DNA of 64,000 nt, from NCBI GenBank assembly GCA_963796105.1, contig CAWCKJ010000003.1, positions 160,001-224,000 of the forward strand, read 5' to 3'. The position numbers and the translations under genes are program-made. Position 1 is the first letter of the stretch, and each line of letters begins with the position of its first letter. Source of the DNA: a candidate division FCPU426 bacterium (lineage in GTDB: Bacteria; Oederibacteriota; Muellerivitia; Muellerivitales; Muellerivitaceae). Of the stretch, positions 34,549 through 63,992 are shown in pieces. The notes under the pieces are model-generated. The model worked only from the letters and a program-made list of their open reading frames with translations, was not told the DNA's origin and ran no database searches.

Positions 34549-34691
34549 TGAATGATGGCCTGACCCCTATGTTTACTCATCGACCATTAAAGCTTTGCCC
34601 TTTCCCTTTACAAATCATAACTTACTTCCATTTTCTAATTTTAGAACTTCTCTAAAAACCGTGAACTGTCAAACATCTTTGGAGGATTTGA

Positions 34692-35747: not shown

Positions 35748-36736
35748 GAATAAAATTTTTACAATTGAATTTGACCTTGCTGGTTGTGACTTTTGTTTTT
35801 CATTCCGTCCTCGCCCAATCGAATTCACCCATTAGTTTCACCAAAAAAGAAATTGCGTTTTTAAAATGGGGTGACGGTAGAAATGAAGTGAAGTTGAACA
35901 AAACTAAACATAAGTTGATCGATAGAAGTAAAGGCGTAACAGAAACAAAAGAATTTGTTTCTTGGACGCGGGATATAAAAATTGACGGTAATGACAACAT
36001 TTATTTCCGTGGCGGAAATGACAAGATTTTTATTGTTTCCTCAGATGGAAGTTCGATTAAAACGATCAGCGCGAAAAAGACGGGTGGATTAATGGATGTT
36101 GATGATGACGGTGATATTTTTGCCCCTTACCACAAAATAGGCGAACCAGAGGGTTTTATACGCACCAAGCCTGATGGAACGCAAGAAGATTTCAAACATT
36201 TCAGTGCAAACTATATGGAAAACGGTATTGCTTATGACATAAATAAAAATAAGGCGATAACCATAGCCGACAAAGGCGACCAGCCTGAGAAACTCCCACC
36301 GCGTTTGTTCTCTCGTGTGGGTGAAGTCGATTATGGAATAAATGCCGGGGGTGAATTGTGCACGATTTACACGAAAAAAATTAATAAACATTTGAAAAAA
36401 ATAAATCAAAAGATTGATGCGGATAAAATCCATATAAAGGTCGAAGAAAAAGACGGCATGCCACCTCGATCACAATTTCTTGGGATTGACGACAATGGCA
36501 ATTCTTATTTTTTGTGCGGTTATTATGGAGGACGGAATAGCTCAGTGCCTTGGAAAGAAACATATGTCATGGTTTATTCCCAGACTGGCCAAAAACTCAC
36601 CGAAATACCGGTTGATACCGATTATTTTGACAAACAATTGGTTTGGACTGAATTCAAGATAGATATTCACGGGATGCTGTTTCAAATGTGGACATCCGAG
36701 GATGGGATACATATTTTTAAATGGACAAAAAATTAG
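35744..36736 (+). CDS. Secreted beta-propeller-like hypothetical protein, paralog 2
   Basis: Shared identical blocks ISFTKKEIAF, GFIRTKPDGTQE, QFLGIDDNGNSYFLCGY; ATGA overlap with paralog 1. Confidence 0.75.
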   Translation: MRIKFLQLNLTLLVVTFVFHSVLAQSNSPISFTKKEIAFLKWGDGRNEVKLNKTKHKLIDRSKGVTETKEFVSWTRDIKIDGNDNIYFRGGNDKIFIVSSDGSSIKTISAKKTGGLMDVDDDGDIFAPYHKIGEPEGFIRTKPDGTQEDFKHFSANYMENGIAYDINKNKAITIADKGDQPEKLPPRLFSRVGEVDYGINAGGELCTIYTKKINKHLKKINQKIDADKIHIKVEEKDGMPPRSQFLGIDDNGNSYFLCGYYGGRNSSVPWKETYVMVYSQTGQKLTEIPVDTDYFDKQLVWTEFKIDIHGMLFQMWTSEDGIHIFKWTKN

Positions 36737-45666: not shown

Positions 45667-46710
45667 ATGAGCGCCTCCATCAGCTTGAGTGATTTGGCCT
45701 TGAAGATAGGCGCTTCTTTTACGGGCGACGGATCAATGCTCTTAAAAGGCGTGGCGCCGTTGGATACGGCGAAAGAGGGCGACTTAACTTTTATCACCAA
45801 TCCCCGCTACGCGAAACACGCCGGCGCCACCCAGGGCTCCTGCATCCTCTGCGACAAAGAAATACCCGGAGTCCAAAAATCCTTTCTTTTAGCTCCCAAT
45901 CCCTACGCGGCTCTCGCGCGCATTATCGGTGTTTTTTTCCCCAAGCAAATCATTGAACCGGGTGTACATAACGGCGCTTGGATTGATTCCTCCGCTTCCA
46001 TTCATCCCGAGGCATGTGTTTTTCCCGGAGTGTATATAGGGGCAAGGGCGAAAGTGGGACGCGGAACTATTTTGTATCCCGGGGTTTTCCTGGGCGAAGA
46101 CACGATCGTGGGGGAGGACTGTATTTTTTACTCGAATGTCACGGTCCGGGAAAAATGCATTGTGGGGAACAGGGTCATTTTCCAACCGGGAGTTGCCATT
46201 GGGGCTGACGGCTTCGGTTTCGCTCCTGAAAAGGAAACCTACGTCAAAATCCCGCAAGTGGGGAATGTGATTATCGAGGATGACGTGGAGTTGGGTTCCA
46301 ATACCTGCGTGGACCGGGCCGCCTTGGGTTCCACAAGAATTGGAAAAGGCACGAAAATCGACAATCTTGTCCAGATCGGGCACAACGTTGTGATCGGCAA
46401 AAACACGATCATTGTGTCCCAAACCGGCATTTCCGGCTCGACCCAGGTCGGCGATCATGTTTTGATGGGCGGGCAGGTCGGTCTAGCGGGCCACATAAAA
46501 ATAGGGGATCATGTGACTTTGGCCACGAGAACGGGAGTCATGGAGGATATCCCGGAGAAAGGCGTTTATTGGGGGTCGCCCTCCATCGACATGACCACTG
46601 AAATGAAAAATGTCGCGGCTTACCGGCAGCTTCCGGCGCTCGTCAAACGCGTCCGGCAATTGGAGAAAACCATCGAGGCTTTACGCGGCGGGAAATCCAT
46701 TGAAAAGTGA
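45667..46710 (+). CDS. lpxD: UDP-3-O-acyl-glucosamine N-acyltransferase
   Basis: IGADGFGF, IPQVG, KIDNLVQIGHN, hexapeptide repeats. Confidence 0.97.
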   Translation: MSASISLSDLALKIGASFTGDGSMLLKGVAPLDTAKEGDLTFITNPRYAKHAGATQGSCILCDKEIPGVQKSFLLAPNPYAALARIIGVFFPKQIIEPGVHNGAWIDSSASIHPEACVFPGVYIGARAKVGRGTILYPGVFLGEDTIVGEDCIFYSNVTVREKCIVGNRVIFQPGVAIGADGFGFAPEKETYVKIPQVGNVIIEDDVELGSNTCVDRAALGSTRIGKGTKIDNLVQIGHNVVIGKNTIIVSQTGISGSTQVGDHVLMGGQVGLAGHIKIGDHVTLATRTGVMEDIPEKGVYWGSPSIDMTTEMKNVAAYRQLPALVKRVRQLEKTIEALRGGKSIEK

Positions 46711-48028
46711 ACCGGGGTCTCGAAGGCAGAGGACAATCGCCCAAGAAGTAACCTTTGAGGGAACGGGTCTTCACACCGGCCATTATTGCCGGGTCCGGGT
46801 TATCCCGGCTCCCCCGGAAAGCGGTCTATATTTCTTTCGGACGGATCTCCAAGCCCGCATTCCTGTCTCGCCTGATTTTGTGACGAGCACCTCTCGGGGA
46901 ACGTCCCTCACCGGGGAAAAGGGAGCCTCCGTTCATACTATCGAGCATTTCCTCGCGTCAATCGCCGGGGCCGGCTTCAACAACCTACGTGTGGAATTGG
47001 ATTCTGATGAAATGCCCATTTTGGACGGAAGCGCTGAATCTTACACTAAAGAGTTCGCGAAAGTTGGCGCCATAGAACAAAAAGCAGTGGTTCATCCGCT
47101 GATCCTTGATGAGCCGCTGGAATTTAGTTTTGGCGAGGTGACCGTTAAAGCGGAACCGGCTGATGGACTCTATTTAGATGTTTACACTTCTTTTCCATAT
47201 CCAGGTCTGGAAAACCAGCGATTCCTTTTCACGCTTGAGGATGGTTCTTTTGCCAAGGAGCTATCCCGGGCGAGAACTTTTTGTTTTGAGGAAGAAGTGG
47301 AACAACTTCGCGAGAAGGGTTTAATCAAGGGAGGCAGCCTTGACTGTGCCCTTGTCATCGGCAAAAAAGGCGTCTTGAACGGGCCGATGCGTTTTGACGA
47401 TGAAATTGTCAGGCATAAGACCCTGGATTTGCTGGGGGATTTGATGCTGTTAAACCGCCCATTACAGGCGAAAATTACAGTTAGAAAAGCCGGGCATCGG
47501 ACGCATGTTGAGTTGGTAAAAGCGATTTATAAAAGATTTTCAAAGGAGGAAAGAGTGAATTCCAATCCAAAGGCCCCAAAAACGATGGATATTGTCGCGA
47601 TCCAAGGGATCTTGCCCCACCGGTACCCTTTTTTACTTGTGGACCGCGTCCTGGAGGTTGAACCTTATAAAAGGGTAGTGGCCATTAAAAACGTGACTGC
47701 CAACGAATCGTTTTTCCAAGGGCATTTCCCCGGGCATCCCATCATGCCTGGTGTTTTGGTCATCGAGGCGATGGCCCAGGCTGGGGGAATTTGTTTCCTT
47801 TGCGACGACCAATCCGGGAAAATGCTTTACCTAGCCGGGGTGGATAAAGCCCGCTTCCGCAAACCCGTGCTGCCGGGGGACCAAATTCGGTTTGAGATAG
47901 AAGTATTAAACATCCGCTCGAAAATAGGTAAAATCGCCGGGAAGGCCATTATCGACGGTCAAGTGGCTTGTGAGGCTGAATTAACCTGCGCCATCATTGA
48001 GCGGGGTGATAATAAAGGAGTCTCGTAA
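46700..48028 (+). CDS. lpxC: Bifunctional LpxC deacetylase / FabZ dehydratase (start approximate)
   Basis: [35 protein letters not shown]; then [30 protein letters not shown] in the same frame. Confidence 0.96.
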
Positions 48029-49686: not shown

Positions 49687-50775
49687 TTATTGATTTTTCC
49701 GGATCAGCAAAAGCGGCCCACCGATCGCGAAAATAATATTCATGGTCCACATGGAGTAAAAAGGGGTCAAAAACCCCGAGTAGCCTAATTCCTCCCCGAT
49801 TTGCATACCGCCAAGGTAGAAAAAAGCCACCAAGATGCAAATCCCCAGGCTGAACATGACACCGCTGTATTTTCCCATGCCCCATCCCCAGGGAACCCCC
49901 AGAACCGCCAATATGACGCAACCAAATGGGAAAGCCAATTTTTTATGCAGAATCACCAATTCCTTGTGGCAATCGGACCCGTTTCGCCTGAGTTGCTGGA
50001 TGTAAGTGACCAATTCAGGGAGATTGAGTTCGCCTGCTTCTTTTTGTTCCTTTAAAAAATCCGAGGGCTTTTCCGGAAGATCAAAGGGCCTTCGGTCGAA
50101 GGACTCCGAGGTCACCTCAATATCCGCGTTATTAAAAGCGCGGTAATATCCGTCGTAAAAAACCCATCTTCCTTTCTCATATTTGGCGCTTTTGGCGTCA
50201 ATCCTGGATTTCAATTGAACACCGGATTGGAAATCCAAAACAAGGACATCCTTCATGGTTTGACCCAAACCGTCAAAAGAGCCGATGTGGTAAATTTGGT
50301 TGTTGGCGCCCCTTAATGAAATGTTTTGCCTGGAAGTGTCCAAGGATGCTTCAGGTTGTTTTTCGATTTCCACGACTTTAGCGTGGTGCATCATCCGGGT
50401 GGTTTTAGGAACAACCAGCTCATCGAAAGCGATGCTGATCAAACAGACGATTAATCCGCAGAAAAATAAAGGAACGGCCACCATGAAAATATGAACCCCG
50501 CCCGCCCGCATGGCCAAGAGCTCATTGGTTTTTGCCAGCCCCCCCAACGCGAAAAGCACGGCGAATAGGACCGCCAATGGAATAATCCGTATCAGAAGCT
50601 CTGGAATTTGAAGCGTGAAATATTTAACGGCTAAAAGAATACCCGGTTTATGATCCATAATCAGTTTCATGTCGTTGAAAACCTGGATAATGAGTATGAC
50701 CACCGAAAAAAACATCAAGGCCATGAAAAAAGGCTTTAAAAATTCCCTAAGGATGTAGCGAGTGATGATTTTCAA
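49687..50775 (-). CDS. lptG: LPS export permease LptG
   Basis: RYILREFL, NELLAMRAGG; LptF/G topology; downstream of lptF. Confidence 0.88.
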   Translation of the reverse strand: MKIITRYILREFLKPFFMALMFFSVVILIIQVFNDMKLIMDHKPGILLAVKYFTLQIPELLIRIIPLAVLFAVLFALGGLAKTNELLAMRAGGVHIFMVAVPLFFCGLIVCLISIAFDELVVPKTTRMMHHAKVVEIEKQPEASLDTSRQNISLRGANNQIYHIGSFDGLGQTMKDVLVLDFQSGVQLKSRIDAKSAKYEKGRWVFYDGYYRAFNNADIEVTSESFDRRPFDLPEKPSDFLKEQKEAGELNLPELVTYIQQLRRNGSDCHKELVILHKKLAFPFGCVILAVLGVPWGWGMGKYSGVMFSLGICILVAFFYLGGMQIGEELGYSGFLTPFYSMWTMNIIFAIGGPLLLIRKNQ

Positions 50776-50851
50776 GAGGCGACCTTTTTAATCAAGATTT
50801 TCACGCCGGTTTTATCATTGGCGACGACAAATGCCCCTCGAAACATTGAGG

Positions 50852-52003
50852 TTAGCCAATTCCCGGAATCCGAATTCTGTTTAAATTCCAGCGAAATCTA
50901 AAAGCTGAATGTTCATTTATCACAAGGTAAAAGAGGAGAAAACCCGTCAGGACTATAAACCCATTAGCCCACCAAAGCCCAAAATAGGGGCTGACAGTTC
51001 CTCTTTGGCTTAAGGCTTCACCTAAAAAAAACATGAGATAATAAAGGAAAATCATGACAATTCCCAAAACGAAAGCGATAAAGCCCTTTGAACGAACCCA
51101 GAGCCCGAGAGGTGCGCAAAGCCAAGTGAGCGCCAGGCAGGCGAAGGGAAGCGACCATCTTTTTTGCAATTCAACTTGGACATAATTCCTCCGGGTCGCG
51201 TCGGTGGTACTGGCGATTTCCTGCACAAGCTCTTGAAAATTCATTTCCTCAAAGTCTTTTTTCACGTCAGCGATCCGGGCCAATTGATTTTCCAGCTTGA
51301 GCCGGATGACATATTCGTCGAAATAAAGGCGGTTATACGTGTTGTAATTGGTGTTATTCCACATCATAACCCCATTATGAAGCTGGAAAAAGAGCTGATA
51401 GTTTTTAGCATCGTTGACCAAGTTTCCAGTCTTAGCAATGGTAGTTTGAAGGGGATCCTTGGGGGTGAATCGGTTGAACATTTTCACGTTGGAAAAATTT
51501 CCGTCCGGGTCCTGCTGATCTATGAAAAATTGATAACCCTCGAAAAGATCGATGAAAACCCTTTCCCGGATCGCCACGTTGGCCCGGTTTTGTATGATTT
51601 TAAAGTGGATTTTCTTGAATGTGGTATTGGCCGCCGGAAGGATTTTATCATTGAAAAAGATCATCACTCCGGTCATGAGCAGGCCGAAAAGAAGAACAGG
51701 GCCGATCAAGCGGAATAAATGCACGCCGCTGCTTTTGAACGCCGTGACTTCCATGTCGGAACTCATACGGCCGAAATTCAAGAGAACGGCCATCATTAAT
51801 GACATCGGGACGGTCAAGGAAAGAACAAAGGGAATCAAACTAACGTAAAGAAGAAGAATATCGCCGAGAGGGACTTTTTTATTCACGAACAAGTCCAAAA
51901 GTAAAAAAACCTTATTCGTCATGAAAATGAAGGTCAGGATGAAAACGCTTAAGGCAAATGGGGGTAATGTTTCCTTTAAAACATAGCGGTAAACCGTTTT
52001 CAA
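50852..52003 (-). CDS. lptF: LPS export permease LptF
   Basis: RYVLKE, FGRMSSDMEVTAFKSSG, ELQKRWSLPFAC. Confidence 0.88.
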   Translation of the reverse strand: MKTVYRYVLKETLPPFALSVFILTFIFMTNKVFLLLDLFVNKKVPLGDILLLYVSLIPFVLSLTVPMSLMMAVLLNFGRMSSDMEVTAFKSSGVHLFRLIGPVLLFGLLMTGVMIFFNDKILPAANTTFKKIHFKIIQNRANVAIRERVFIDLFEGYQFFIDQQDPDGNFSNVKMFNRFTPKDPLQTTIAKTGNLVNDAKNYQLFFQLHNGVMMWNNTNYNTYNRLYFDEYVIRLKLENQLARIADVKKDFEEMNFQELVQEIASTTDATRRNYVQVELQKRWSLPFACLALTWLCAPLGLWVRSKGFIAFVLGIVMIFLYYLMFFLGEALSQRGTVSPYFGLWWANGFIVLTGFLLFYLVINEHSAFRFRWNLNRIRIPGIG

Positions 52004-52288: not shown

Positions 52289-55200
52289 ATGGGGAATTTC
52301 CTGAATATTTTGGTAACGATTCTAAGCGAGATGGGTAAAACAATGTCCTTTTTCACTGAATCTCGCCATGTTTCCCTGACACCAGGGAATAAAATCATTG
52401 GTTTTGACCGAAAGGGAAAGCGAAAATATTTCAAAACAATAAACATTGAATATTTAGTCCCAATGTCACTTTTAATGGGTATTTCAATAATGCTTTTCAA
52501 CCCCAAGCCGGGTTGGAGCCAAGCGGCCACCAACCCGGTCCCGACCGTTTCAACGACTTCAAATGGAACTCCGGCGTCTTCGGCTTTAGCCCCGCTGACC
52601 CCTGATCAGGAAATTCAAATATTAGAAGCGATCGACGCGCAGTCAAACAGCACATCAGCTATTTCGGCCAGTTCCGAAAATCCATTACCCGCCGTTTCGT
52701 CCACTAAACCGCAACAGGCGCAACCCATCGGGGCTAAAACCCCTGAAATGAACGGGAATACCACCACACCCACCGCCGTGGTGACTGGGCCTCCCCCCAT
52801 TCCCACGGGATTAAATGACCTCATCCTGAAAGAAGGGGTCTATCTTTCCTGGAACTCGGCTCCGCCCGGGTCTCCCATCGTAGGTTACAACGTTTATAGG
52901 TCGAACCAGCCTGGGACCGGCTACCAGATGGTCAACTTGAAACCCCTCAACGTGGCATTTTTCCTTGATGGCCCTCCCAATAGCCTGAACCCTCCTAAAA
53001 ATGGCGAAACCTATTTTTACGTGGTCGCATCCATTGATGCCCAGGGAAACGTGAGCCCCTATTCGGAGGAAATATCGGCACAGCCCCAGGGAATGCAATA
53101 CGCGGCCGCCACGGAGGAAGCCACCCCGGTTCCAACACATCAAAAAGAAGAAGAAAAAACATTAAACATCCCTGAAAGCAAGCTTATCAACCTTCAATTG
53201 CCGGCGGACACACAGCTCTCCATCCAGGGCTATAAGAAAATAGAGGTCCAGCTTGGTTTTCAAACCTTTAACCGTCCCCAGACTATCAATGGACTTAGCA
53301 ACTCCCAAAACACACAGCTAGTCAACCAGGAGTTGGTGGTCAATCTTGATGGCAAGGTCGGGAAAAATGTGGATATACACGTGGACTACAGCGACGTCAA
53401 CCGCGCGGGAGGCGTGGATCAGAGCAAACAGGAAATCTCCATCGCCTACCATGGTGACGAAAATAGCCCGGTGCAAGAAGTTGATTTCGGTGATCTTCAG
53501 CTTCTGCTTCCCAACACTGAATTCGCTGGATTCAGCAAACAGCTTTTCGGCCTTCAGGCCAAGCTGAAGTTTGATAATTTCAAAATGACGACTTTTTTCG
53601 CCCAAACGAAGGGAATTTCCGAGACGAAGGTGTTTACCGGAAATTCTTCACAAGTCGATAAAACATATAACGATATCGATTACATAAGACAAAAATATTA
53701 TCTTCTGACTAAAAAACCTTATCCCAACGGCTCTACCACCATCAACGTTGCCGATTTACCAAAGCCAAATTCCGAACAAATTTGGGTTAATCCTAGCAAT
53801 GGTTCCACTGCATTTCCATCCGGCCCCAATTACATCGGCTATTTTCAACATTGGCTCCCGGGAAGGGACTATACGGTGGACTATACAACCGGAGTTATTA
53901 CATTTATCACGGGGCTGTCTAGTACAGCGCAGATTGCAATAGGTTATAACGATCAAACCGGTCAAAAATATGGATTAAACGATATCAACAATATCGCTAA
54001 TATCTTATCTCAACCGTCTTCCTTATTGATGAACCCCAATGGTCTCATTGACGATACCCATGTTCTAATAAAAAACAATGACAATACCAGCAGTCCCTTT
54101 TACATGGTGGATTATTATGATTTGGGCCACGACAAGATTATTCCGCCAAACCAAGACCCAAATTTCTTGTTGGAGATCATTGACCAAGGGACCAACAACG
54201 TCCTTCAAGAAATGTCAAATGGGCCTATCAGTTATTATGTCAATCAGGATTTAAATCTCTTATCTGTCTATAACGCTAACAACGATTCAGTCTCCTATAC
54301 AACAACATCGAATGGCACGGCAGTTACAGTCCAGGGAAATTTCGAGGAAAGGGCTTTTGTTGATTCATCCGATCCGGCCCTGGGAACCAGTATCAATGGG
54401 ATTTATAATGAAAACACGGTTCCTACCAGCTTAAAGCGTATTCATATTCGTTATAAAACCCAATTAAACTTTTATTCATTGAACCGGTTTAACATTATCA
54501 AGGGAAGCGAGGCGGTATATCTGGATGGCAGGCGATTGCGCCGGGATGTGGATTACACCATTGATTACACCTCGGGTTTTTTGGACTTTGTCGATAAAAG
54601 CATTTTACGGACTGACAGCCAGGTGGTGGTGACCTATGAGTACTCACCTTTTGGATCTTTCGCGCAGGAAAACATCTTGGGGGCAAGGGCTGAATACGAT
54701 CTCACGGACCATTTTTTTGTGGGATCAACATTTCTTTACAGCTCCACGCAAACTCCAATCGACCAGCCCCAGATTGGTTCAACTCCCAACTCTCTCACGC
54801 TCCTAGACGCTGACGCAAAATATGATTTAGGGTCGGAGGACGTTCAATCTCTAACTGGTCTAATTCCGGGTTTGGCTGATTGGAAACCCCCTGTCGCCGT
54901 GAAACTTTCCGGGGAAGTGGCTGAAAGCTTTTTCGACCCCAATAGCTACAATGCCGAAGGAGAAACGGGTGTGGCCATGCTTGACAGCATGGAGGGAATC
55001 GACAACGTGATCGGCCCGAACTTGAACGCCACCAATTGGATCGCTTCTTCTCCCCCTCTAGCAGTTCCGGCCTATTTGCCCATTACCGTTTGCGATGGAA
55101 GTTGTACTGTTTCTACTAATAACCGGATTCGTTTTATGAACCAAGACGATACCCAGTACTTACAAACTCTTCCCGCAACCGTTACAGGCATTAATGGGGC

Positions 55201-58200
55201 TGGTGGACATCTTTATCAACAGACGGGAAACGCGACCGATGAGGTATCGGTTTTAATGATTCCTTACGCGAACCTTAATAACCAAAAATGGGGTGGGATT
55301 CGGCAAATTCTCTCGACCTCAGGTGAAGACCTTTCTACTACCACCTTCCTTCAAGCCTGGATCTACAACGATAATCCCGCCAATGACAAATGGGTTATGG
55401 TTGATTTTGGGATAATGGATGAAGCTGTGGCTGGCCTGAGTTCGGGAGCTACAATTGAAAATGAATGGGTCTCCAACGGTGGAACGCCGGTTTGGGACGA
55501 TTATGGGATTCCAGCTTATTATTCAAATATTGTGGGAGCCCTAGGAGTCACATTACCGGCTATAGGAGGCCCGAATAGCTCTTCGAATTATATATCCAAT
55601 GAGAACAACACCTCCACTCAAGAGGGCGCTAGAAATCTGATAAATGATACTGAAGACGTCAATGCAAACGGCAATTTGGATGGAAATGACCAATATTTTG
55701 AGTATGGTATCCGCGCCAATTGGAGCGGCTGGAAATTGGTTAAAATTCCAGTGAATTTTTCCGCGGTGCCTGGCCAGAATACAACCGACGAGGGTGTCGA
55801 TTATTTTTACAACGTTGTTGGGGCAGCCAGTTCCGCTTTGATCCGGGAAATCAGGCTATGGGTGACGGGGGCAAGTCCCGCACCCATTTCGGGCTATTTC
55901 CTTGTGGATAGTATCGGTTTTACCCACAACTTATGGCAGGATCAGGTGGATCCCAATGCCAACTTGACCCAAGGCGTGACCGTCAACACTTCCAAATTTG
56001 ACGCAACTTCCATCAGCCAAATCCAGGATTCAGCTTACCAACCGACTCAGAGGTTTATAGTCCTACAGGAAGGCCAAAACCAGAATACGGTGCTGGAGAA
56101 CGAAAAATCCCTCCGGATCACCTATAACCTCTCAACGGCGGATATGTACGTCACCAACATTCCTGGACCTGTATCAGAAGTTTCAGAACCCGATTATTAT
56201 TGCACTCGTTCCTTTGGACAAGGTCTTGATCTGACCGACTACCAGAACCTGGCCTTTGACCTGAATGTGAGGACGGCGGTTGATCCGGGGGAAATTCTTT
56301 TTATCCGTTTGGCCAATGATCAACTTGATTATTACCAATACAACGTGCCCCTTGTTTCGGGAGGGGGATGGCAAACCATTTCCCTACTGATTGACGGTTC
56401 ACAAGGCAACCGCCAGACAGTGGGGACTCCATTTATTAACCGAACAGCCCAGATCTCAATCGGCATTATCTCGCCCAACCCTGTCCCGGGGGGTACCAAG
56501 GAACTTTGGATCGATAATTTACGGACGAACAATCCTAACCAAAGATCTGGCCTGGCCAGGAGAGCCAACGCCGCTGTGATCCTTGGCAATAATTTCGCGA
56601 CTTTGAACGGGCGTTATCGGGAAGTGGATTCCGGCTTTACCGAGATGGATCAAACCTCCACTCATTTCCAACATTCAAAGCAATTGGGGGCGGATTATTC
56701 CTCCAGCGGGATCAAGCTTTTCGGACAGCCCCTGGCAACCCAGGCTTCCTACACCGTCCAAGATCTTACAACCGAGCAGGATTTGCTTCAAAACCCCTAT
56801 TACAGTCCCTTGCCCAATACCCACACGGAAAATGCGACTGGGAGCATTAGCTACACCAAGGATCTTGGCACTTCCTACGGAAAAATAACAAACTTAAGAC
56901 TTTCAGGCAGTTCCAACTACGAAGATGACGAGTATCAACCAGCTTACTTGACCCAACCCGGAATACAGGGCGACACGACCAAAACCGATCAAACATATAC
57001 ATTGGCTTCCACCTATGACGCGCCGCTTAAGTTATTCAATCTTCCAATTGGTACCAATCAATTGAACGGCACTTATACGCTTACCCATGACACCCAGGAT
57101 TTCGGATTTAACACTTTCGCGCCTTATGACCGCACTACAAAAACCCAAACTTACGGATGGATCAACACAACTGAAATCCTCAAGAATCTCGTGTTTACTC
57201 CCGGTTATACATTTTCCGAAACTGACGCGAAAGGTAACACTAATTCACCAGGTATCGCGGGTGGAGTGGGTGATTACACGACATTCCAGGATAGGTACCA
57301 ACCGAAGGGTGGGCTTGTTTTCCGTGGGATTCCAGGCATGATTCCCTCGATCGATTATTCCGGGAGCAACCAATACGACTATGAATCCTTTCCTGATGGC
57401 CCACGTTTCAACAACGCGAACAATTTCAATAGTTCCCTGAACCTGACTCCTGGTTCCTGGCTGACGTTGTTTCAAAAAGCGAATCTCACGGTCTTTGCCG
57501 GATTGACGGAAAGCGCCACTTCCTCAGTGCCGGATTTCACCCTCATTCCACCGCTCACCTTCAGCCAAAAATGGCTCATTAATCCGCCTTTTGGAGTCGC
57601 CCTGAACGCCACAGAGTCAACCTCCAAACAGTTGAACATGAGCTTTAAAATTTTCGATTTTTGGGACGTTAAACCAACCGGTTCCTGGACGAATCAACTG
57701 AGCCTTTTATCCAAGGGATCCAATGCAGTTTCGCAGGAGGGAAGAACGATGGGGGGAACCACCGTTTATAATCATCCGATCCTTTCGTTACCCCTGATCA
57801 AATTCAACCTTACTTCCGCGCAATTCCAGTTCACTCACACCGACAATACTCAATACGACAGCAGTGGTTCCGGGATACCCGCCAACCAAACTTATAGCGA
57901 TCTCTATTCTGTTACGCTGCCTTACGAAATTAACAAAAAAGCCCAAGGCAACTTTCATTACCAACTCACAAAGGGTTTTCAAAATGTCAGCGATTTAATA
58001 ACCAATCAGTACGACTCCCTGTTTTCGCTGGAATATGACCAGAAATTTCTGGAGAATCAATATCTCCACATACCCTTTACCAATTGGAAGATCAAATTTA
58101 CCCAGGCCTTGGAATTTCGAGCAACTTTCACCCGCGAATGGGTCGATAACGAGTCTTTATATGTCACGAATGTACTCAAAACCGAGCGCTATCGGGGACA

Positions 58201-58342
58201 GATCGATCTTAATTACAATGCTTTGAAGAATTTGCGTGTCGGTCTTACCTTGGCTTATGAAAATTTTAACAATATCGAGCCAAACCCCAATCTGGGCTAC
58301 AATTTAATCCAAGTAAATCTTTCAGCCGAGGCGAGATTTTGA
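52289..58342 (+). CDS. SprA/Sov-like giant outer-membrane beta-barrel with an N-terminal FN3 domain (true start may be downstream)
   Basis: NQELVVNLDGKVG..VDY, EVDFGD..L..QLFGLQ, GSEAVYLDG..L.RDVDYTIDYTSG, DTEDVNANGNLD; C-terminal Phe. Confidence 0.75.
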   Translation: MGNFLNILVTILSEMGKTMSFFTESRHVSLTPGNKIIGFDRKGKRKYFKTINIEYLVPMSLLMGISIMLFNPKPGWSQAATNPVPTVSTTSNGTPASSALAPLTPDQEIQILEAIDAQSNSTSAISASSENPLPAVSSTKPQQAQPIGAKTPEMNGNTTTPTAVVTGPPPIPTGLNDLILKEGVYLSWNSAPPGSPIVGYNVYRSNQPGTGYQMVNLKPLNVAFFLDGPPNSLNPPKNGETYFYVVASIDAQGNVSPYSEEISAQPQGMQYAAATEEATPVPTHQKEEEKTLNIPESKLINLQLPADTQLSIQGYKKIEVQLGFQTFNRPQTINGLSNSQNTQLVNQELVVNLDGKVGKNVDIHVDYSDVNRAGGVDQSKQEISIAYHGDENSPVQEVDFGDLQLLLPNTEFAGFSKQLFGLQAKLKFDNFKMTTFFAQTKGISETKVFTGNSSQVDKTYNDIDYIRQKYYLLTKKPYPNGSTTINVADLPKPNSEQIWVNPSNGSTAFPSGPNYIGYFQHWLPGRDYTVDYTTGVITFITGLSSTAQIAIGYNDQTGQKYGLNDINNIANILSQPSSLLMNPNGLIDDTHVLIKNNDNTSSPFYMVDYYDLGHDKIIPPNQDPNFLLEIIDQGTNNVLQEMSNGPISYYVNQDLNLLSVYNANNDSVSYTTTSNGTAVTVQGNFEERAFVDSSDPALGTSINGIYNENTVPTSLKRIHIRYKTQLNFYSLNRFNIIKGSEAVYLDGRRLRRDVDYTIDYTSGFLDFVDKSILRTDSQVVVTYEYSPFGSFAQENILGARAEYDLTDHFFVGSTFLYSSTQTPIDQPQIGSTPNSLTLLDADAKYDLGSEDVQSLTGLIPGLADWKPPVAVKLSGEVAESFFDPNSYNAEGETGVAMLDSMEGIDNVIGPNLNATNWIASSPPLAVPAYLPITVCDGSCTVSTNNRIRFMNQDDTQYLQTLPATVTGINGAGGHLYQQTGNATDEVSVLMIPYANLNNQKWGGIRQILSTSGEDLSTTTFLQAWIYNDNPANDKWVMVDFGIMDEAVAGLSSGATIENEWVSNGGTPVWDDYGIPAYYSNIVGALGVTLPAIGGPNSSSNYISNENNTSTQEGARNLINDTEDVNANGNLDGNDQYFEYGIRANWSGWKLVKIPVNFSAVPGQNTTDEGVDYFYNVVGAASSALIREIRLWVTGASPAPISGYFLVDSIGFTHNLWQDQVDPNANLTQGVTVNTSKFDATSISQIQDSAYQPTQRFIVLQEGQNQNTVLENEKSLRITYNLSTADMYVTNIPGPVSEVSEPDYYCTRSFGQGLDLTDYQNLAFDLNVRTAVDPGEILFIRLANDQLDYYQYNVPLVSGGGWQTISLLIDGSQGNRQTVGTPFINRTAQISIGIISPNPVPGGTKELWIDNLRTNNPNQRSGLARRANAAVILGNNFATLNGRYREVDSGFTEMDQTSTHFQHSKQLGADYSSSGIKLFGQPLATQASYTVQDLTTEQDLLQNPYYSPLPNTHTENATGSISYTKDLGTSYGKITNLRLSGSSNYEDDEYQPAYLTQPGIQGDTTKTDQTYTLASTYDAPLKLFNLPIGTNQLNGTYTLTHDTQDFGFNTFAPYDRTTKTQTYGWINTTEILKNLVFTPGYTFSETDAKGNTNSPGIAGGVGDYTTFQDRYQPKGGLVFRGIPGMIPSIDYSGSNQYDYESFPDGPRFNNANNFNSSLNLTPGSWLTLFQKANLTVFAGLTESATSSVPDFTLIPPLTFSQKWLINPPFGVALNATESTSKQLNMSFKIFDFWDVKPTGSWTNQLSLLSKGSNAVSQEGRTMGGTTVYNHPILSLPLIKFNLTSAQFQFTHTDNTQYDSSGSGIPANQTYSDLYSVTLPYEINKKAQGNFHYQLTKGFQNVSDLITNQYDSLFSLEYDQKFLENQYLHIPFTNWKIKFTQALEFRATFTREWVDNESLYVTNVLKTERYRGQIDLNYNALKNLRVGLTLAYENFNNIEPNPNLGYNLIQVNLSAEARF

Positions 58343-58355
58343 AAATGGATATTTT

Positions 58356-61300
58356 ATGAAAACGCTGATAAATCCAAAACTCGGAATTTTCTTTTGCGCA
58401 ATGAACTTTTATTATTATTTGTGTGCCGCCTTTTTTATTTTGGGTTCCTTACGCGGAAGTTTATACGCGCAACTTCCACCTCCTGGGGGTTTAACAGGTA
58501 ATGTGGCTAATGGGGCCGTTACATTGCAATGGTTACCCATTCCGAGTGCATCACCTACTGCCTATTTTATTTACCGGTCATTGGTTGAAAATACAGCTAC
58601 TATGACTGACACTCCGCCTTCTACCCCAAGTTCCCCGGAGTCGCCCATTGATACCTTTACCATCACCCCGACCCCGTCACCAATTACTTCTGTATTGGCG
58701 GGAACGTCAAGTTACATCGATTATCAAGTTACAAATGGACGCACTTATCTTTATCAAGTAAATGCGATAGATATCTCCGGGTTAGGTTTTCCCGCTTCGG
58801 TTTTAGTAATACCTTACGGTCCTGCGGAAGCAATCACGCAATTAACCATTCAAAATAACCAACATTCCGGCGCGTTGGATTTGTACTGGGGTATTCCTTC
58901 GTCGACATATCCTGTTTCCATTTACCAAATATTTAGATATGACGTAACGACTACACCGATATTCACTCCCACTCTCACGAACACACCGTCAAATACCCCC
59001 ATGGCCATTATGCCGCCCCCTCAGCTCACCCCATGGAATACCCCCACAAATTCTTACACCCCAACGAAAACGTCTACATTTACAGTCACTGACACCCCAA
59101 CATATACTCCGACTGGGACTAGGTCGCCGACCAGCACCCCCACCAATCTTTTTCCCGCTTCCGCCGTTTTGACTTTAAATCCCAATCCGATCGCAATTAC
59201 TTCCGACAATACTTATTCCGATATACCGGTTCCATCTTCGGAAAATTATTTTTATGTGGTTCAGGCGGTGGACTCCCAGGGAAATCCCGGCCTTTTGCCA
59301 ACCTATGCGGCTGGCCCTGCAGGCGTCAAATACAACCTACCACCAGACCCTCCCGTTTTAATGGGATTTGTTCCGGTTACCCCGACTCCAACTTATGGGG
59401 TACAACTTTATTGGAACGGGCCATTGGCTTCCGAAGGAGTGACTGTTTATACTTTAATTTCAAACGAAACACCAATCGCCACATTTACAACACCCTCGCC
59501 AACCATGGGCTATCTTGATTTTAAGATTACCGAATCAAACAATTCAGGCAATCCTACGACCTATCAAGTTGTGGCATCCAGCGCAGTTACTTCAAGCAAT
59601 TCTAATCCCATACAATTAAGTATTAGTAAATCTTCTTTATCCGGCCAACCAACGGTTATTCCAGTCGTCACAGCAAATGCCGTCAGTTTATCCTGGTCTG
59701 ACGGCGTAACAGGCACCTATGGTTTAGCTGGTTATTGGATATTCAAGGCTTTAAATGGATATCCGGGTACGACTGGGTTATCGCCCACTCCGACACCCAT
59801 CGCAACTGTTCTTGAAACTGCTACTCCGAACCTGGTTTATTCTTGGGTGGACGCACCGACACCCGTTAATCATATGGGTTATTGGGTACAACCTTTTGAT
59901 AATGCTCTCACGGGCGGAATTATTGGTACCCCGACTATCCTCAATTTGGCACCCACCCCTGTTTCAACTGTAAGCGCTGTAAACGTCGTGGGAGGGAATA
60001 ATCAAGTGAATGTGAGTTGGTCCGGAAATGCCGGTCCTGGTTTTTTTGGAACGCCTGCAAATTACGTAATATACAGATTCTATTCAACTCCTACTCAAAC
60101 CCCAACTCTCACGAGTATCGCTACGGTGGGATATACACAAAATAACTTTAACGACTTCATTCTTGTTGTTACCGCTAATCCACAAGTGGAATACCAAGTG
60201 GGTGTAGTAGATGCCTTTGGAAACACTTCGGATTTGACGGCAATCTCGAACCCTGTGACTACTTCCAATCTTGGCCTGCCATTACAACCAACCGTTTTGC
60301 CCTTGGCCGGGGCCACCAATTCTTTACTTTACTCCTGGATTCAAAACCCTCAGTCGGACCAGGTTGATAGTTATTATTTGTTTGGGCAGGATTGGCCCAC
60401 TCTGACTGCTACTACTACCCCTACCCCAGTGGTAAATTTAGTCCCATCCCCAACTATGTCCTATTCAAACCCCGGGAGTTCCTGGAGTTCATCGATTTTT
60501 TATCTTTTAGCTCATAATTCCGTGGGTTACAGCAAACCAGCGACCTTGTCCGGCATTCCAGTGCCTCCTTACCAAGTAACTGCGATACCCACTTCTAGCC
60601 AGCAAGTACTGGTTACATGGAACTTAATACCTACACCAAACGCCAAAACAGCTGTGGATGGATTTAATATTTACCGTTCCAACATTTCAGGCGCTGAATT
60701 TGTTTCGATAGGGAATGCCTCTCCTGCTCAAACCAATTTCATTGACCCAAATGCCCAACCTGGAAAAAATTATTTTTACCGGGTCACCGCAAAGGGCCAT
60801 GATGTGATTGGGGATGAATTATCCGAAAGCCCGCTTTATCCCACACCAGTCGCGGAAGCGGGTTTTTACAGCTGGCCCAGCACGCCGATGGGTTTGAGCG
60901 CCCAAGGGGGGATCAACCAGACAACCCTTTACTGGTCATACAATCCCACGGACGAATTCGTGACGGATTATTTAATATATAAGAACGGTAACCTGACGCC
61001 TGTTTTAACGGTCATGGCAACTTTATCACCCACCAACACCCTTGCGCCAGCCTCTCCGTCCCCCACTGCCACGATTACCCCGACACCTAATTTAACCCCG
61101 CTCCAGACGCAAACCGCGACCATTACTCCAAGCCCGACTCCAACCGGATATTACGTCACCCTACCAGACAATGCGGCCCAGGAATCTTCTTATCAAATAG
61201 TCGCTCAAAATATTCAGGGATTCAGCACTCCGTCAAACACAGTCTCTATTTTATGCGATCCAATCATCAATCCAACCGCGGGGTTAACCCCTCCGCAAGG

Positions 61301-63212
61301 ATTTACGCCAACCCCAAAAGCCACACCTGCTTATCCACCTGTAGTTTGGATTTCCGGAATTACATATCCAGGGGTCGTCACTGGTTATGTAATTTATAGG
61401 TCTAGCGATCCCAGTTTCCCTTCCAACAATACTCCAATTACAAATGTCACGGGTCCGGTGTCATTTATTCCTGATAATGGGGCAGTCTCGGGTTATACAA
61501 ATTACTATGAACTTTTAGCTAATGACACCAATCATATAAGCGTCAATCCGTTGCCAGGAACGGCCCCTGTGGTTTCCGTTGATGTTTGGCCAAACGTCCC
61601 CTCAAGCATGGCCTGCCAGCCAGCCAGCACATCAATAAACCTATCCTGGGCTGCCCCTATAGGAAACCTCGTTATTACGGGATATGAAATCCACCGCAGT
61701 ACCTGTCCAACCTGCCCCCAGACATTGTTGGCCACTGGCGTTTCCAAACCTACTTATCAGGACAACTTGGCGACGCCCCGCGTTCCATATTTTTATGAAG
61801 TCGATTCAGTGGCCTCAAACGGTCTTACGAGCGCTCAAAGCTCCGCTTCGGGTCTCGCTGTGTCTCCCGTATCATTGCAAAACACCCCATATGCCGCATC
61901 CAACAACCTGAATTGGTCGCCGGTTTCCGTTGCCACGCCTAGCAATATCACCGGATATGTTGTCTATCGAATGACTTTGCAAAATCCCGCCACCCAAATA
62001 CCCGTTTCTTTCACTTCTATATCGCCACTTTTGGAAGGAATCAATAATACGGTTTATGCTGATATTAATGTTACAGAAGCCACAACTTATGCTTATGAGG
62101 TGGCGCCGGCCGCATTGAATCCTGCCGGAGGCTATATTTTGGGTCCCTTCTCAAATGCCGTGACTCAATCGGTCTTTCCACAACCAGTGGCGGATTTGGA
62201 AGCCGCTTCAGGGGATGGAATTGTTCAATTGCGGTGGGATTACCAGGGAACAGCGGATAACGCCTTTACTTACACCATCATGCGGAAGCTTGGGGCCGCG
62301 CCGGATATCGACTATCAGGTTCTCAAATCTGGTTTTTCTGGGATCAATTACACTGACTCCCCTGTTCAAAACAAAACATTTTACGATTACGAAGTTATAG
62401 CCGCGGACGCGAATGGGCAGGCCTCAACAGCGCAATACGTAACCGCGTTACCGGCCAAACCGCCAATCGTCACTGATACCGCCGTTAGTTTGAGCCAAAG
62501 CCAAGGAGGAACAATCCAGGGAAACACCTTGATATGGTCTGCGGCTAATATGATGGTGACTGTCATAAATAATGGGGTGACTAGCGTCACTAGCAATGTC
62601 GAAAATTTTGACCCGGCTAACATGTATCCATTAGGGGGTTATTTGCTGTCTCGTTCCACCGACGGGGGTGGAATTTATACTTATACCCATATTATTTCCG
62701 CGCCGACACCCTCCAGCGGGGCAACAATAGGGCCGGCGGCAGTCACTTATTTTGACCCGGTCCAATTGGTTCAGGGAAACACGAATACTTATTTAATCCA
62801 AGCGTTCGACGCACCTCCTGATTTACCGCTTCCACTGGCGCAGGCTGTCACCCAAAGTTGGGTGCACCTTTCAAATTATAATTTGGTTACAGCGTATCCA
62901 CTGAACGCCGGAGCGGCTTTGGACCTAAACGCCATTCGTCCATTCGGCACCGCTACCAAAGTACACATTCGGTTTGTGGTCACGACACCCGGAAATGTGA
63001 ATATCAAGGTGTATGCCCTGAACGGTACTTTCATCAAGGAGTTGGTCAACCGATGGTTTACCAGCGGTGTTTATGGAACGCCTGATAGTCCTTATCCCTT
63101 GATTTGGGACGCTCGTAATATGAACGGGACTTTAGTGGCTTCCGGGGTTTATCTGATTACGGTTGAGGTTAACGGCCACCAGGAAATAGACAAGATCGCC
63201 GTCATCAAATAA
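58356..63212 (+). CDS. Large secreted FN3-repeat, Pro/Thr-rich protein with FlgD-Ig/T9SS-type C-terminal domain
   Basis: Signal peptide; repeated L.W..Y.IYR..Y.D..Y.Y.V.A units; TPTxTPT linkers; C-terminal VNIKVY..G..IKEL..WDARN..G..VASGVYL..KIAVIK. Confidence 0.85.
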   Translation: MKTLINPKLGIFFCAMNFYYYLCAAFFILGSLRGSLYAQLPPPGGLTGNVANGAVTLQWLPIPSASPTAYFIYRSLVENTATMTDTPPSTPSSPESPIDTFTITPTPSPITSVLAGTSSYIDYQVTNGRTYLYQVNAIDISGLGFPASVLVIPYGPAEAITQLTIQNNQHSGALDLYWGIPSSTYPVSIYQIFRYDVTTTPIFTPTLTNTPSNTPMAIMPPPQLTPWNTPTNSYTPTKTSTFTVTDTPTYTPTGTRSPTSTPTNLFPASAVLTLNPNPIAITSDNTYSDIPVPSSENYFYVVQAVDSQGNPGLLPTYAAGPAGVKYNLPPDPPVLMGFVPVTPTPTYGVQLYWNGPLASEGVTVYTLISNETPIATFTTPSPTMGYLDFKITESNNSGNPTTYQVVASSAVTSSNSNPIQLSISKSSLSGQPTVIPVVTANAVSLSWSDGVTGTYGLAGYWIFKALNGYPGTTGLSPTPTPIATVLETATPNLVYSWVDAPTPVNHMGYWVQPFDNALTGGIIGTPTILNLAPTPVSTVSAVNVVGGNNQVNVSWSGNAGPGFFGTPANYVIYRFYSTPTQTPTLTSIATVGYTQNNFNDFILVVTANPQVEYQVGVVDAFGNTSDLTAISNPVTTSNLGLPLQPTVLPLAGATNSLLYSWIQNPQSDQVDSYYLFGQDWPTLTATTTPTPVVNLVPSPTMSYSNPGSSWSSSIFYLLAHNSVGYSKPATLSGIPVPPYQVTAIPTSSQQVLVTWNLIPTPNAKTAVDGFNIYRSNISGAEFVSIGNASPAQTNFIDPNAQPGKNYFYRVTAKGHDVIGDELSESPLYPTPVAEAGFYSWPSTPMGLSAQGGINQTTLYWSYNPTDEFVTDYLIYKNGNLTPVLTVMATLSPTNTLAPASPSPTATITPTPNLTPLQTQTATITPSPTPTGYYVTLPDNAAQESSYQIVAQNIQGFSTPSNTVSILCDPIINPTAGLTPPQGFTPTPKATPAYPPVVWISGITYPGVVTGYVIYRSSDPSFPSNNTPITNVTGPVSFIPDNGAVSGYTNYYELLANDTNHISVNPLPGTAPVVSVDVWPNVPSSMACQPASTSINLSWAAPIGNLVITGYEIHRSTCPTCPQTLLATGVSKPTYQDNLATPRVPYFYEVDSVASNGLTSAQSSASGLAVSPVSLQNTPYAASNNLNWSPVSVATPSNITGYVVYRMTLQNPATQIPVSFTSISPLLEGINNTVYADINVTEATTYAYEVAPAALNPAGGYILGPFSNAVTQSVFPQPVADLEAASGDGIVQLRWDYQGTADNAFTYTIMRKLGAAPDIDYQVLKSGFSGINYTDSPVQNKTFYDYEVIAADANGQASTAQYVTALPAKPPIVTDTAVSLSQSQGGTIQGNTLIWSAANMMVTVINNGVTSVTSNVENFDPANMYPLGGYLLSRSTDGGGIYTYTHIISAPTPSSGATIGPAAVTYFDPVQLVQGNTNTYLIQAFDAPPDLPLPLAQAVTQSWVHLSNYNLVTAYPLNAGAALDLNAIRPFGTATKVHIRFVVTTPGNVNIKVYALNGTFIKELVNRWFTSGVYGTPDSPYPLIWDARNMNGTLVASGVYLITVEVNGHQEIDKIAVIK

Positions 63213-63224
63213 TAAAATATCCAT

Positions 63225-63992
63225 TTGGTTAAGTTTGATGGGCTCATCATGATTTTCAACCCAAGAAATCTTATCCGTGATTATTTGACCGACTTCATCT
63301 TTCCGAAAGTCTGTCAAAATTGCGGAAATTATTTCAAGGAAGGATTGTCCAATATTCTTTGCCGATCTTGTTTCGATTCCATTCTCCCCTACGAAGATCC
63401 CGTTTGCAATCATTGCGGTGTTTCTCTGCCCATAAGAGGATTTGAGTCCGCCGTCAATATCAGATGCCGTGATTGCGGCGAAGGGAATTATCATTTGGAT
63501 TTTGTCCGTTCCTTGGGTGCTTATGAGGGCCCCATTCGAATCATCCACCACGCCTTCAAGTTTGAGGGGATGGAAAGACTTAAAACGCCGGTCGCTGATA
63601 AAATAGTTAAACATGTGCCTCATTTTTTTTGGAATAACGTGGAGGCCTTAGTGCCAGTTCCTCTTAGCTCCGAAAAGGAAAGGGAAAGAGGATATAATCC
63701 CTCTGATTTGCTGTCAGAAGAAATTTCGCGTAGAATCGGCATACCCGTAATAAAGATCTTGCGAAAAGTTAAACCCACGCCTCCCCAAATGTCGTTAGAA
63801 AGAACTGAACGTTTGAAAAACCCCCGGAACGCTTTCGCTATTGATAATTCAATGATGATGCCAAAGAAAATTATAATGATTGACGATGTTTATACGACAG
63901 GATCGACTTTGGAGGAATGCGCTCGAATTTTAAAAATGTCCGCTGATATTTGGGTTGGCGCTCTTGTTTTCGGGCGCACTCCCCGTCGTTGA
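63225..63992 (+). CDS. comF: ComF family phosphoribosyltransferase with double zinc ribbon
   Basis: CxxC x4, VPVPL, ERGYN, IDDVYTTGSTL. Confidence 0.93.
   Translation: MVKFDGLIMIFNPRNLIRDYLTDFIFPKVCQNCGNYFKEGLSNILCRSCFDSILPYEDPVCNHCGVSLPIRGFESAVNIRCRDCGEGNYHLDFVRSLGAYEGPIRIIHHAFKFEGMERLKTPVADKIVKHVPHFFWNNVEALVPVPLSSEKERERGYNPSDLLSEEISRRIGIPVIKILRKVKPTPPQMSLERTERLKNPRNAFAIDNSMMMPKKIIMIDDVYTTGSTLEECARILKMSADIWVGALVFGRTPRR

Follow-up and report, generated by a model that had tools for sequence, protein, structure and literature searches.

Can a type 9-like export pathway exist outside the Bacteroidota, and can it run without the motor that drives it there? This question is raised by two adjacent genes in a 64,000-nt stretch of contig CAWCKJ010000003.1 from a candidate division FCPU426 bacterium (the window hereafter; coordinates are positions within it). 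The first gene, P0001 (52289..58342, plus strand, 2017 aa counted from the first ATG), encodes a giant outer-membrane protein of the SprA/Sov family, the translocon family of type 9 secretion systems (T9SS). The second gene, P0002 (58356..63212, plus strand, 1618 aa, ATG start), encodes a secreted protein with an array of fibronectin type III (FN3) domains and a C-terminal domain (CTD) of the sorting type. The two genes lie on the same strand and are separated by a gap of 13 bp (58343-58355) in the list of open reading frames (ORFs). We consider it probable, at roughly 60%, that they belong to a type-9-like export pathway that has no known motor and that has P0002 as its conserved co-encoded cargo.

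In Flavobacterium johnsoniae, the CTD of the cargo binds the loops of PorV inside the SprA pore, and the energy of GldLM, transmitted via a hub, pulls the PorV-cargo complex from the lateral opening of SprA; the GldLM motor is described as proton-driven (PMC10994853; PMC12635249). Published work describes T9SS as confined to the Bacteroidota or to the Fibrobacteres-Chlorobi-Bacteroidetes (FCB) superphylum (PMC11205867, PMC11611037, PMC7906972, PMC5445135), and a published phylogeny of T9SS components is limited to classes of the Bacteroidetes (PMC7323717). In the passages and abstracts consulted, no link was found between T9SS or SprA and Elusimicrobia, Firestonebacteria or Goldbacteria. What is new here, as read from sequence, is a predicted full-size SprA translocon that carries an FN3 domain of its own and has a syntenic FN3-CTD partner in 16 families, in a phylum outside the FCB group, with no known motor or hub detected and with the sortase undetected in most genomes.

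P0001 is a SprA homolog

A first-pass annotation, made from the letters of the window, had described P0001 as a 2017-aa SprA-like protein with a terminal Phe. The ORF is confirmed, it ends in ...SAEARF, and its likeness to SprA is far above chance. Specifically, the NCBIfam model for Sov/SprA, TIGR04189, matches P0001 with 207.6 bits (E 2.2e-61, curated cut-off 200) in four collinear stretches, at model positions 95-261, 588-789, 1072-1330 and 1393-1486. The match covers model positions 95-1486 of 2319 and P0001 residues ~306-1469 (53204..56695, plus strand), which is the region of direct sequence homology to SprA found with TIGR04189 and with hhalign.

A search with P0001 as a single sequence is too insensitive to find this relationship: phmmer against the PDB gave no match, so an ortholog profile was needed, and a related-locus search with P0001 as the single query gave 30 pattern matches and 0 relatives. 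The ortholog profile (A1), built from 21 orthologs in the host's phylum, recovers the solved SprA chain 6H3I_A from the PDB at E 5.6e-47, with profile positions 256-1357 placed onto chain positions 142-1563. Furthermore, hhalign of A1 against three Bacteroidota SprA proteins gives a probability of 100 (E 4.7e-50, 1058 columns), with A1 columns 264-1376 aligned onto Bacteroidota SprA 154-1583 and with the match starting at P0001 residue 313. P0001 is a true SprA/Sov homolog.

The known references for this family are F. johnsoniae SprA (PDB 6H3I, 6H3J, 8GL6 and 8GL8) and TIGR04189. P0001 and the Bacteroidota SprA proteins are both giant outer-membrane proteins with collinear homology over P0001 residues ~306-1469, they share a C-terminal aromatic residue, and the genomes that encode them also have CTD tails and PorV-family barrels. 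In contrast to the Bacteroidota proteins (2382, 2367 and 2454 aa), P0001 is ~370-440 residues shorter, and it has in addition an N-terminal linker rich in Ser, Thr and Pro followed by an FN3 domain.

The N-terminal extension had been singled out as unusual in the first-pass annotation, and both of its parts are there. By eye, the translation shows a hydrophobic stretch resembling a signal peptide at residues ~57-78 (52457..52522, plus strand; ...GWSQA/ATNP), which is followed by the Ser/Thr/Pro-rich stretch at residues ~79-167 and by the FN3 domain at residues 168-274 (52790..53110, plus strand). The FN3 domain matches, at E 3e-22, a custom hidden Markov model (HMM) that was built from the FN3 domains of the partner P0002, and the A1 profile likewise matches solved FN3 domains in the PDB. 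The hhalign alignment with Bacteroidota SprA begins C-terminal of this FN3 region. The alignments of the P0001 orthologs begin only at about residue 51-173, and the true start codon may therefore lie downstream of the first ATG.

Predicted fold of the C-terminal third

The C-terminal third of P0001 (56696..58339, plus strand), which ends with the final Phe, is unrecognisable by sequence as Bacteroidota SprA. A profile of this last third reaches the SprA proteins of Elusimicrobiota and Aerophobetes at E 1e-20 to 1e-8, and three further iterations lead to PF14349-bearing proteins of intermediate lineages, one of which is named SprA by its source. The link to PF14349-bearing SprA obtained in this way is weak, because profile iteration can drift.

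The AlphaFold2 (AF2) model covers residues 818-2017, the last 1200 residues of P0001, with a mean predicted local distance difference test score (pLDDT) of 79.3 and a predicted template modelling score (pTM) of 0.47, and it has ~26 long beta-strands in its last 615 residues. Foldseek ranks four SprA chains first for the model (E 2.9e-38 to 3.1e-32), before a drop to 1.9e-5 at the following match. VIA-align superimposes 1024-1054 residues, placing model positions 6-1200 onto SprA 784-2401, and the predicted fold common to the two proteins runs over P0001 residues 825-2017 and SprA 786-2401. We take the C-terminal third to be the barrel wall, with the predicted SprA-like fold extending to the C-terminus. 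The comparison of the barrel with SprA by HMM and Foldseek, which had been named as the check on the first-pass assignment, comes out positive on each count: TIGR04189 above its cut-off, 6H3I_A with the ortholog profile, hhalign, and SprA chains at the head of the Foldseek list.

The host lies outside the FCB group

The close relatives of the host are metagenome-assembled genomes (MAGs) from soil. TopA is uninformative as a taxonomic marker, with soil MAGs at ~80% identity followed by Firmicutes at ~45%. In a FastTree phylogeny with 47 SprA sequences, local SH-like supports and an arbitrary root placed on three Bacteroidota, the sequences of the host's phylum fall into one clade of 23 (support 100), which also contains records titled Ca. 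Firestonebacteria, Goldiibacteriota and Coatesbacteria as well as three titled 'Spirochaetia'. The sister of this clade, again with support 100, consists of Elusimicrobiota and Aerophobetes. The NCBI taxonomy lists Firestonebacteria, Goldiibacteriota and Coatesbacteria under 'Bacteria candidate phyla', outside the FCB group, in accordance with the first-pass impression that the host is not a member of the Bacteroidota.

The SprA-like gene is nearly universal in the phylum. Among 99 genomes, 60 of them of high quality, it is found in 94 and in 59, respectively, at one locus per genome among the matches listed, where a genome with more than one row has a single gene in pieces. The host genome (4.98 Mb, 16 contigs, 96.8% complete) likewise has one SprA locus.

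P0002 is an FN3 array with a predicted divergent sorting-type tail

Directly downstream of P0001, the first-pass annotation had placed a 1618-aa FN3 protein with a CTD-type end, 13 bp away. ORF and spacing are as described, the C-terminus reads ...ASGVYLITVEVNGHQEIDKIAVIK, and profiles for both the FN3 domains and the tail match. By eye, the signal peptide comprises residues 1-38 (...SLYA/QLPPP). The custom FN3 HMM finds ~12-13 FN3-like units between residues 40 and 1504, with linkers rich in Pro and Thr between them. Pfam fn3 reaches E 2e-4 and 22 bits, under its cut-off of 25, and P0002 also matches FN3 domains in the PDB.

The conserved core of P0002 is an FN3-FN3-CTD unit at residues 1274-1618 (62175..63209, plus strand), as defined by an alignment of 16 orthologs and by the AF2 model. 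The model of these last 345 residues has a pLDDT of 86.7 and contains three beta-sandwich domains, of which the first two are predicted FN3 domains by VIA (Z 12-14, root-mean-square deviation (rmsd) ~2 Å over ~90 residues). The match lists of Foldseek and of a wide VIA search with the core are filled by FN3 arrays, which cover core residues 1-243 only.

The third domain, at residues 1524-1618 (62925..63209, plus strand; ending ...WDARNMNGTLVASGVYLITVEVNGHQEIDKIAVIK), is predicted to be of the sorting type. A CTD profile assembled from 41 non-redundant tails of the host genome, all positive with the type A CTD model TIGR04183, matches it at E 1.4e-13 with 49 bits, and the same profile also picks up the tail in each of the 15 partner homologs. 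Like the type A CTD (TIGR04183/Por_Secre_tail), the tail sits at the very C-terminus and has endings of the G-x-Y and K-x-x-x-x-K types. In addition, the PorZ, PorU and M6i models each match the P0002 tail weakly with their CTD ends, whereas upstream of the tail P0002 has no likeness to the PorZ propeller or the PorU peptidase. Among the tails of the 16 partner orthologs, the CTD end of the PorZ model is weakly matched in 14, that of PorU in seven, and Pfam FlgD_ig matches 12. The P0002 tail is, on these profile matches, a predicted divergent type-A-like CTD. P0002 is probably glycosylated.

The SprA-partner pair is conserved across the phylum

A full-length homolog of P0002, with 35-65% identity, follows SprA directly in all 11 loci of the host's family and order. 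Outside them, homology to P0002 is limited to the last 100-340 residues, and the FN3-FN3-CTD core is the sole part of the partner that is common across the phylum. The minimal partner, in G026, has 332 aa and consists of a signal peptide, two FN3 domains and the CTD.

We searched the 99 phylum genomes with an alignment of the core (A2, 16 orthologs) and compared the positions of its matches with those of SprA by hand. A strong match, defined as E 1.2e-49 or better, is present in 73 genomes. In 57 of the 73, the core lies on the same contig and strand as SprA, at most 6 kb downstream, and in one more (G015) it starts beside SprA and runs off the end of the contig; taken together, the 58 adjacent cases come from 16 of the 23 families. 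A further 13 cores are on other contigs of fragmented assemblies, two are in genomes without a SprA match, and none is distant from SprA on the same contig. In G029, the gene order is SprA, partner and PorV/PorQ-family barrel. The FN3-CTD protein is a conserved companion of SprA rather than a chance neighbour.

The remaining 26 genomes have no strong partner match; they comprise all genomes of families f4, f11, f12 and f13, eight of the 11 genomes of f10, and G063, G023, G065, G014 and G085, with G023 having a weaker, non-adjacent core match (9e-41). The SprA matches in f4, f11, f12 and f13 start at profile positions 127-234; the N-terminal FN3 region is at ~107-211, and part or all of the FN3 domain is therefore outside the match in these families. 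A statistic for co-evolution between loss of the SprA FN3 domain and loss of the partner was dropped, as the eight f10 genomes break the pattern and the four families may be one clade.

This distribution bears on the nature of the partner. Instead of being cargo, P0002 could be a fixed subunit of the translocon, such as a cap, plug or attachment module, with a retained CTD on a PorV/PorQ-like barrel and with FN3-FN3 contacts to the FN3 domain of SprA. There is precedent for the arrangement in PorZ and PorU of T9SS, which have retained CTDs and are docked on PorQ and PorV. The restriction of conservation to the FN3-FN3-CTD base, with a minimal form of 332 aa, fits such a subunit, as do the match between the SprA FN3 domain and the partner FN3 profile, the excess of PorZ-model matches among the partner tails (14 of 16, against six for the general cargo model) and the 13 genomes of f4, f11, f12 and f13 in which a strong partner is lacking and the SprA FN3 domain is partly or wholly outside the match. 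However, eight of the 11 f10 genomes keep the SprA FN3 domain without a strong partner match, the pattern in the four families could be a single loss, and the PorZ-model matches are weak (best E 1.2e-5) and confined to the tail. We regard a fixed-subunit role as unlikely and favour P0002 as cargo.

CTD tails and carrier-like barrels accompany SprA

Many CTD proteins, a feature of canonical T9SS, are predicted in the host genome, where TIGR04183 gives 48 matches, 47 of them over the cut-off. In 46 of these 48, the tail stops 2-20 residues short of the stop codon; in one the distance is 26 residues, and one has no stop in the stretch read. Across the phylum, CTD tails are present in 99/99 genomes.

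The PorV/PorQ family model NF033709 is also matched over its cut-off in 99/99 phylum genomes, with 18 matches in the host genome (best 175 bits, cut-off 90); PorV-type barrels, of which the first-pass annotation saw none in the window, are thus not missing from the genome. The PorV equivalog model NF033710 reaches at best 67.5 bits in the host genome, against a cut-off of 250.

In four of 14 PorV-like loci in the host genome, a CTD gene precedes the barrel gene on the same strand, with no more than 300 bp between its end and the start of the barrel gene. These four cargo-then-barrel pairs are recorded at C12:80610-81595, C4:571357-572690, C4:1232039-1232781 and C6:120230-121128, and in each pair the CTD-bearing ORF ends 141-273 bp before the PorV-like barrel. 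This arrangement suggests carriers or anchors that are specific to their cargo.

Motor and hub components are undetected in the phylum

In the host genome, HMM searches found no GldM, GldL or GldN. Among the 99 phylum genomes, GldM is found in none, with nothing even at relaxed E-values; GldL is over the cut-off in none, with five matches of at most 20 bits each; and GldN is found in none at E 0.01. In Bacteroidota positive controls, the same searches recover GldM in 3/3 genomes (and in 2/2 in a second run), GldL in 3/3 and GldN in 5/5. Outside the phylum, GldM is absent from all ten SprA-bearing genomes titled Elusimicrobia/-ota, Goldiibacteriota, Aerophobetes, Coatesbacteria or Praeruminimicrobium that were searched, and GldN from both of the two searched among these ten.

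Two genomes among those searched are cautions on absence calls with very long models. G100, a Sphingobacterium, has no SprA by TIGR04189 although GldL, GldM and GldN are present, and the SprA match at G101:C1:1628869-1635775 is broken by stop codons.

For the hub, no phylum genome has a GldK match at E 1e-25 or over the cut-off (0/99). In the host genome, the GldK model gives only generic FGE-sulfatase matches of at most 63 bits, against a cut-off of 350; the GldK-like matches are generic enzymes of ~280 aa, and such matches also occur in B. subtilis, Caulobacter and Methanosarcina. PorW/SprE yields only tetratricopeptide repeat noise in the host genome (59.9 bits against 250), with a model that matches 12 of 14 control genomes. 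No candidate for a motor gene adjoins SprA in the 11 loci scanned.

For the sortase, the PorU model matches only with its CTD part in the host genome (positions 962 onward, at most 37.5 bits against 420), and Peptidase_C25, the PorU/gingipain-type domain, is found in 0/31 genomes of the host's family. The domain is present in 8/99 phylum genomes, in families f7, f10, f16 and f23 (for example at G030:C2:433497-434387), and a minority of the phylum therefore has a sortase-like enzyme.

Taken with the SprA matches and the placement of the host, these results support the first-pass suggestion of a divergent or minimal T9SS, with GldL, GldM, GldN and GldK undetected in 99/99 genomes. Of the two findings that would have spoken against it, a barrel unlike SprA and an FCB host with a canonical T9SS, neither occurred: the barrel matches SprA, the SprA clade is a non-FCB one, and these four components are undetected in the phylum of the host.

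A candidate export pathway

From homology, gene content and synteny we infer the following pathway. P0001 would be the outer-membrane translocon of a type-9-like export system that is native to an uncultured phylum outside the FCB group. Entry into the SprA-like barrel would be from the periplasm, for proteins that carry a Sec signal peptide and end in an Ig-like sorting domain; within the barrel, carriers of the PorV/PorQ family would take these proteins over before their exit to the cell surface. This route would run without the GldLM motor, the GldKN hub and PorW/SprE, and in the host's family also without a PorU-type sortase; CTD tails are probably not cleaved by the known enzyme. As the energy chain is undetected, the extraction step, which is costly in the Bacteroidota, would be powered differently or not at all; it may occur spontaneously or draw on a driving force that has so far escaped recognition. 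As the conserved, dedicated cargo, P0002 would presumably be co-transcribed with the pore and form a long FN3 stalk, anchored to the cell surface through its FN3-FN3-CTD base.

Several observations count against this proposal. On the side of the pore, the margin of P0001 over the curated cut-off of TIGR04189 is just 7.6 bits, a Pfam scan of P0001 gives no match, with SprA_N absent at E 0.1, and hhalign finds no direct similarity between P0001 residues 1400-2017 and Bacteroidota SprA 1560-2382 (probability 2%, E 0.022). The VIA Z score of the P0001 model for SprA, ~16 with an rmsd of ~12 Å, equals that for generic barrels, which cover only 250-440 residues of the model. On the side of the cargo, P0002 differs from type A CTD cargo in that TIGR04183, the curated model, gives nothing at E 0.1 and leaves its tail outside the 48 matches of the genome; at E <=0.01 the model matches just 6/16 partner orthologs. 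The PorV/PorQ family model also matches the control genome of Bacteroides thetaiotaomicron, which is not known to have a T9SS, and a match to this model alone is for that reason not diagnostic. The absence searches used HMMs trained on Bacteroidota, that for GldK was made without a Bacteroidota control, and TIGR04189 itself found SprA in 4/5 Bacteroidota genomes and missed one. In addition, a look for sequencing runs that contain the stretch listed no RNA run, and one DNA run shared 0.06 of its words. Furthermore, substrates in the Bacteroidota are reported to be trapped on SprA once the motor is removed (PMC10994853), and export without it would therefore call for a mechanism beyond those demonstrated so far.

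Part of this evidence would also fit a canonical T9SS in which motor, hub, PorW and sortase are present but have diverged beyond the reach of Bacteroidota-trained HMMs. As SprA is barely over its cut-off and its C-terminal third escapes profile comparison, other parts could have drifted further; one of five Bacteroidota SprA genes is missed, and proteins of the FGE-sulfatase type weakly match GldK in the genome (best 63 bits). Yet SprA, the PorV family and the CTD are all detectable with similar models in 94-99 of the 99 genomes. Over the same genomes, GldM and GldN remain empty even at E 0.001-0.01 and GldL has only its five matches of at most 20 bits, the GldK-like matches are generic enzymes of ~280 aa that recur in B. 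subtilis, Caulobacter and Methanosarcina, and the 11 loci have no motor candidate beside SprA. Overlooked motor genes are thus a rather improbable explanation, a little more so than a fixed-subunit role for P0002, and we retain the pathway without a known motor.

A bolder version of this pathway is possible, although we hold it to be doubtful. SprA and cargo-specific PorV/PorQ-like carriers may form a self-sufficient, ancestral export machine that predates the GldLM/GldKN chain and is native to non-FCB phyla, including the Firestone/Goldii/Coates lineage, Elusimicrobiota and others. The partner would then be a fixed subunit, docked on the N-terminal FN3 domain of the pore, that replaces motor-driven extraction or gates the pore. 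If so, the motor of the Bacteroidota would be a later addition tied to gliding.

Pore, carriers and dozens of proteins with tails are retained in this phylum while the energy chain is undetected, which poses the question of whether a SprA translocon works without GldLM and of what replaces extraction by the motor. The locus also bears on the origin of T9SS, where the pore may have come first and the motor later. Public records label the close relatives of P0001 'hypothetical protein', and these proteins of ~2000 aa thereby gain names. For work at the bench, the conserved FN3-CTD partner is a tangible starting point.

Envelope-biogenesis genes adjoin the locus

The genes upstream of P0001 belong to envelope biogenesis. 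An lptG/lptF pair (49687..52003, minus strand; Pfam LptF_LptG E 5.5e-86 and 1.5e-79) is divergent from P0001, and Pfam identifies skp, lpxD, an lpxC-fabZ fusion, lpxA and lpxI beyond it. LptF/LptG adjoin SprA in six of the 11 related loci scanned, in addition to the window.

This neighbourhood raises the possibility that the SprA-like barrel has a housekeeping role in the biogenesis or integrity of the outer membrane and is no exit for CTD proteins, whose tails would merely dock on PorV-like barrels. A gene that is nearly universal, at one locus per genome among the matches listed, would suit such a role, and so would the skp-lpxD-lpxC/fabZ-lpxA-lpxI block and lptF/lptG in the window, the recurrence of lptFG beside SprA in 6/11 loci, a BamA gene nearby in locus L117, the FlgD Ig-like models that match 12 of 16 partner tails, and the undetected motor. 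Nevertheless, virtually every genome of the phylum has SprA together with CTD tails and PorV-family barrels, a combination also seen in T9SS organisms, and in 58 of 73 genomes the gene directly behind SprA codes for a CTD protein. No SprA homolog is known to have a function other than secretion. Among the alternatives, a housekeeping barrel seems to us the least probable, and export of CTD proteins through P0001 remains the reading that we prefer.

Two features of this neighbourhood vary between related genomes. Several genera of the host's family have two additional genes between lptF and SprA, one for a LytTR-type response regulator (249 aa) and one for a protein of 435-479 aa (L108:14812-16862, L110:15125-17307 and the corresponding place in further genera); the insertion is absent in the genus of the window. 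In G029, a 640-aa protein resembling YD-repeat/RHS proteins is encoded directly upstream of SprA (L119:8522-10441).

Downstream of the pair, the window has a comF-like gene (63225..63992, plus strand; Pfam DZR_2 E 4.5e-9), and ComF-family genes also occupy the position after the pair in loci L108, L110, L120, L123 and L126.

Elsewhere in the window are valS, a che operon, a PilT-TPR gene, dprA, topA and a tmRNA gene. An IS200-like Y1 transposase domain is found on a 312-aa ORF at 33610-34548, in a low-GC stretch (GC 0.39 at 34001-36000), and three ORFs without a Pfam match follow it. Within the skp-lpxD-lpxC/fabZ-lpxA-lpxI block, directly upstream of lptFG and SprA, a single ORF at 46610-48028 combines LpxC and FabA/FabZ-like domains and represents the LpxC-FabZ fusion.

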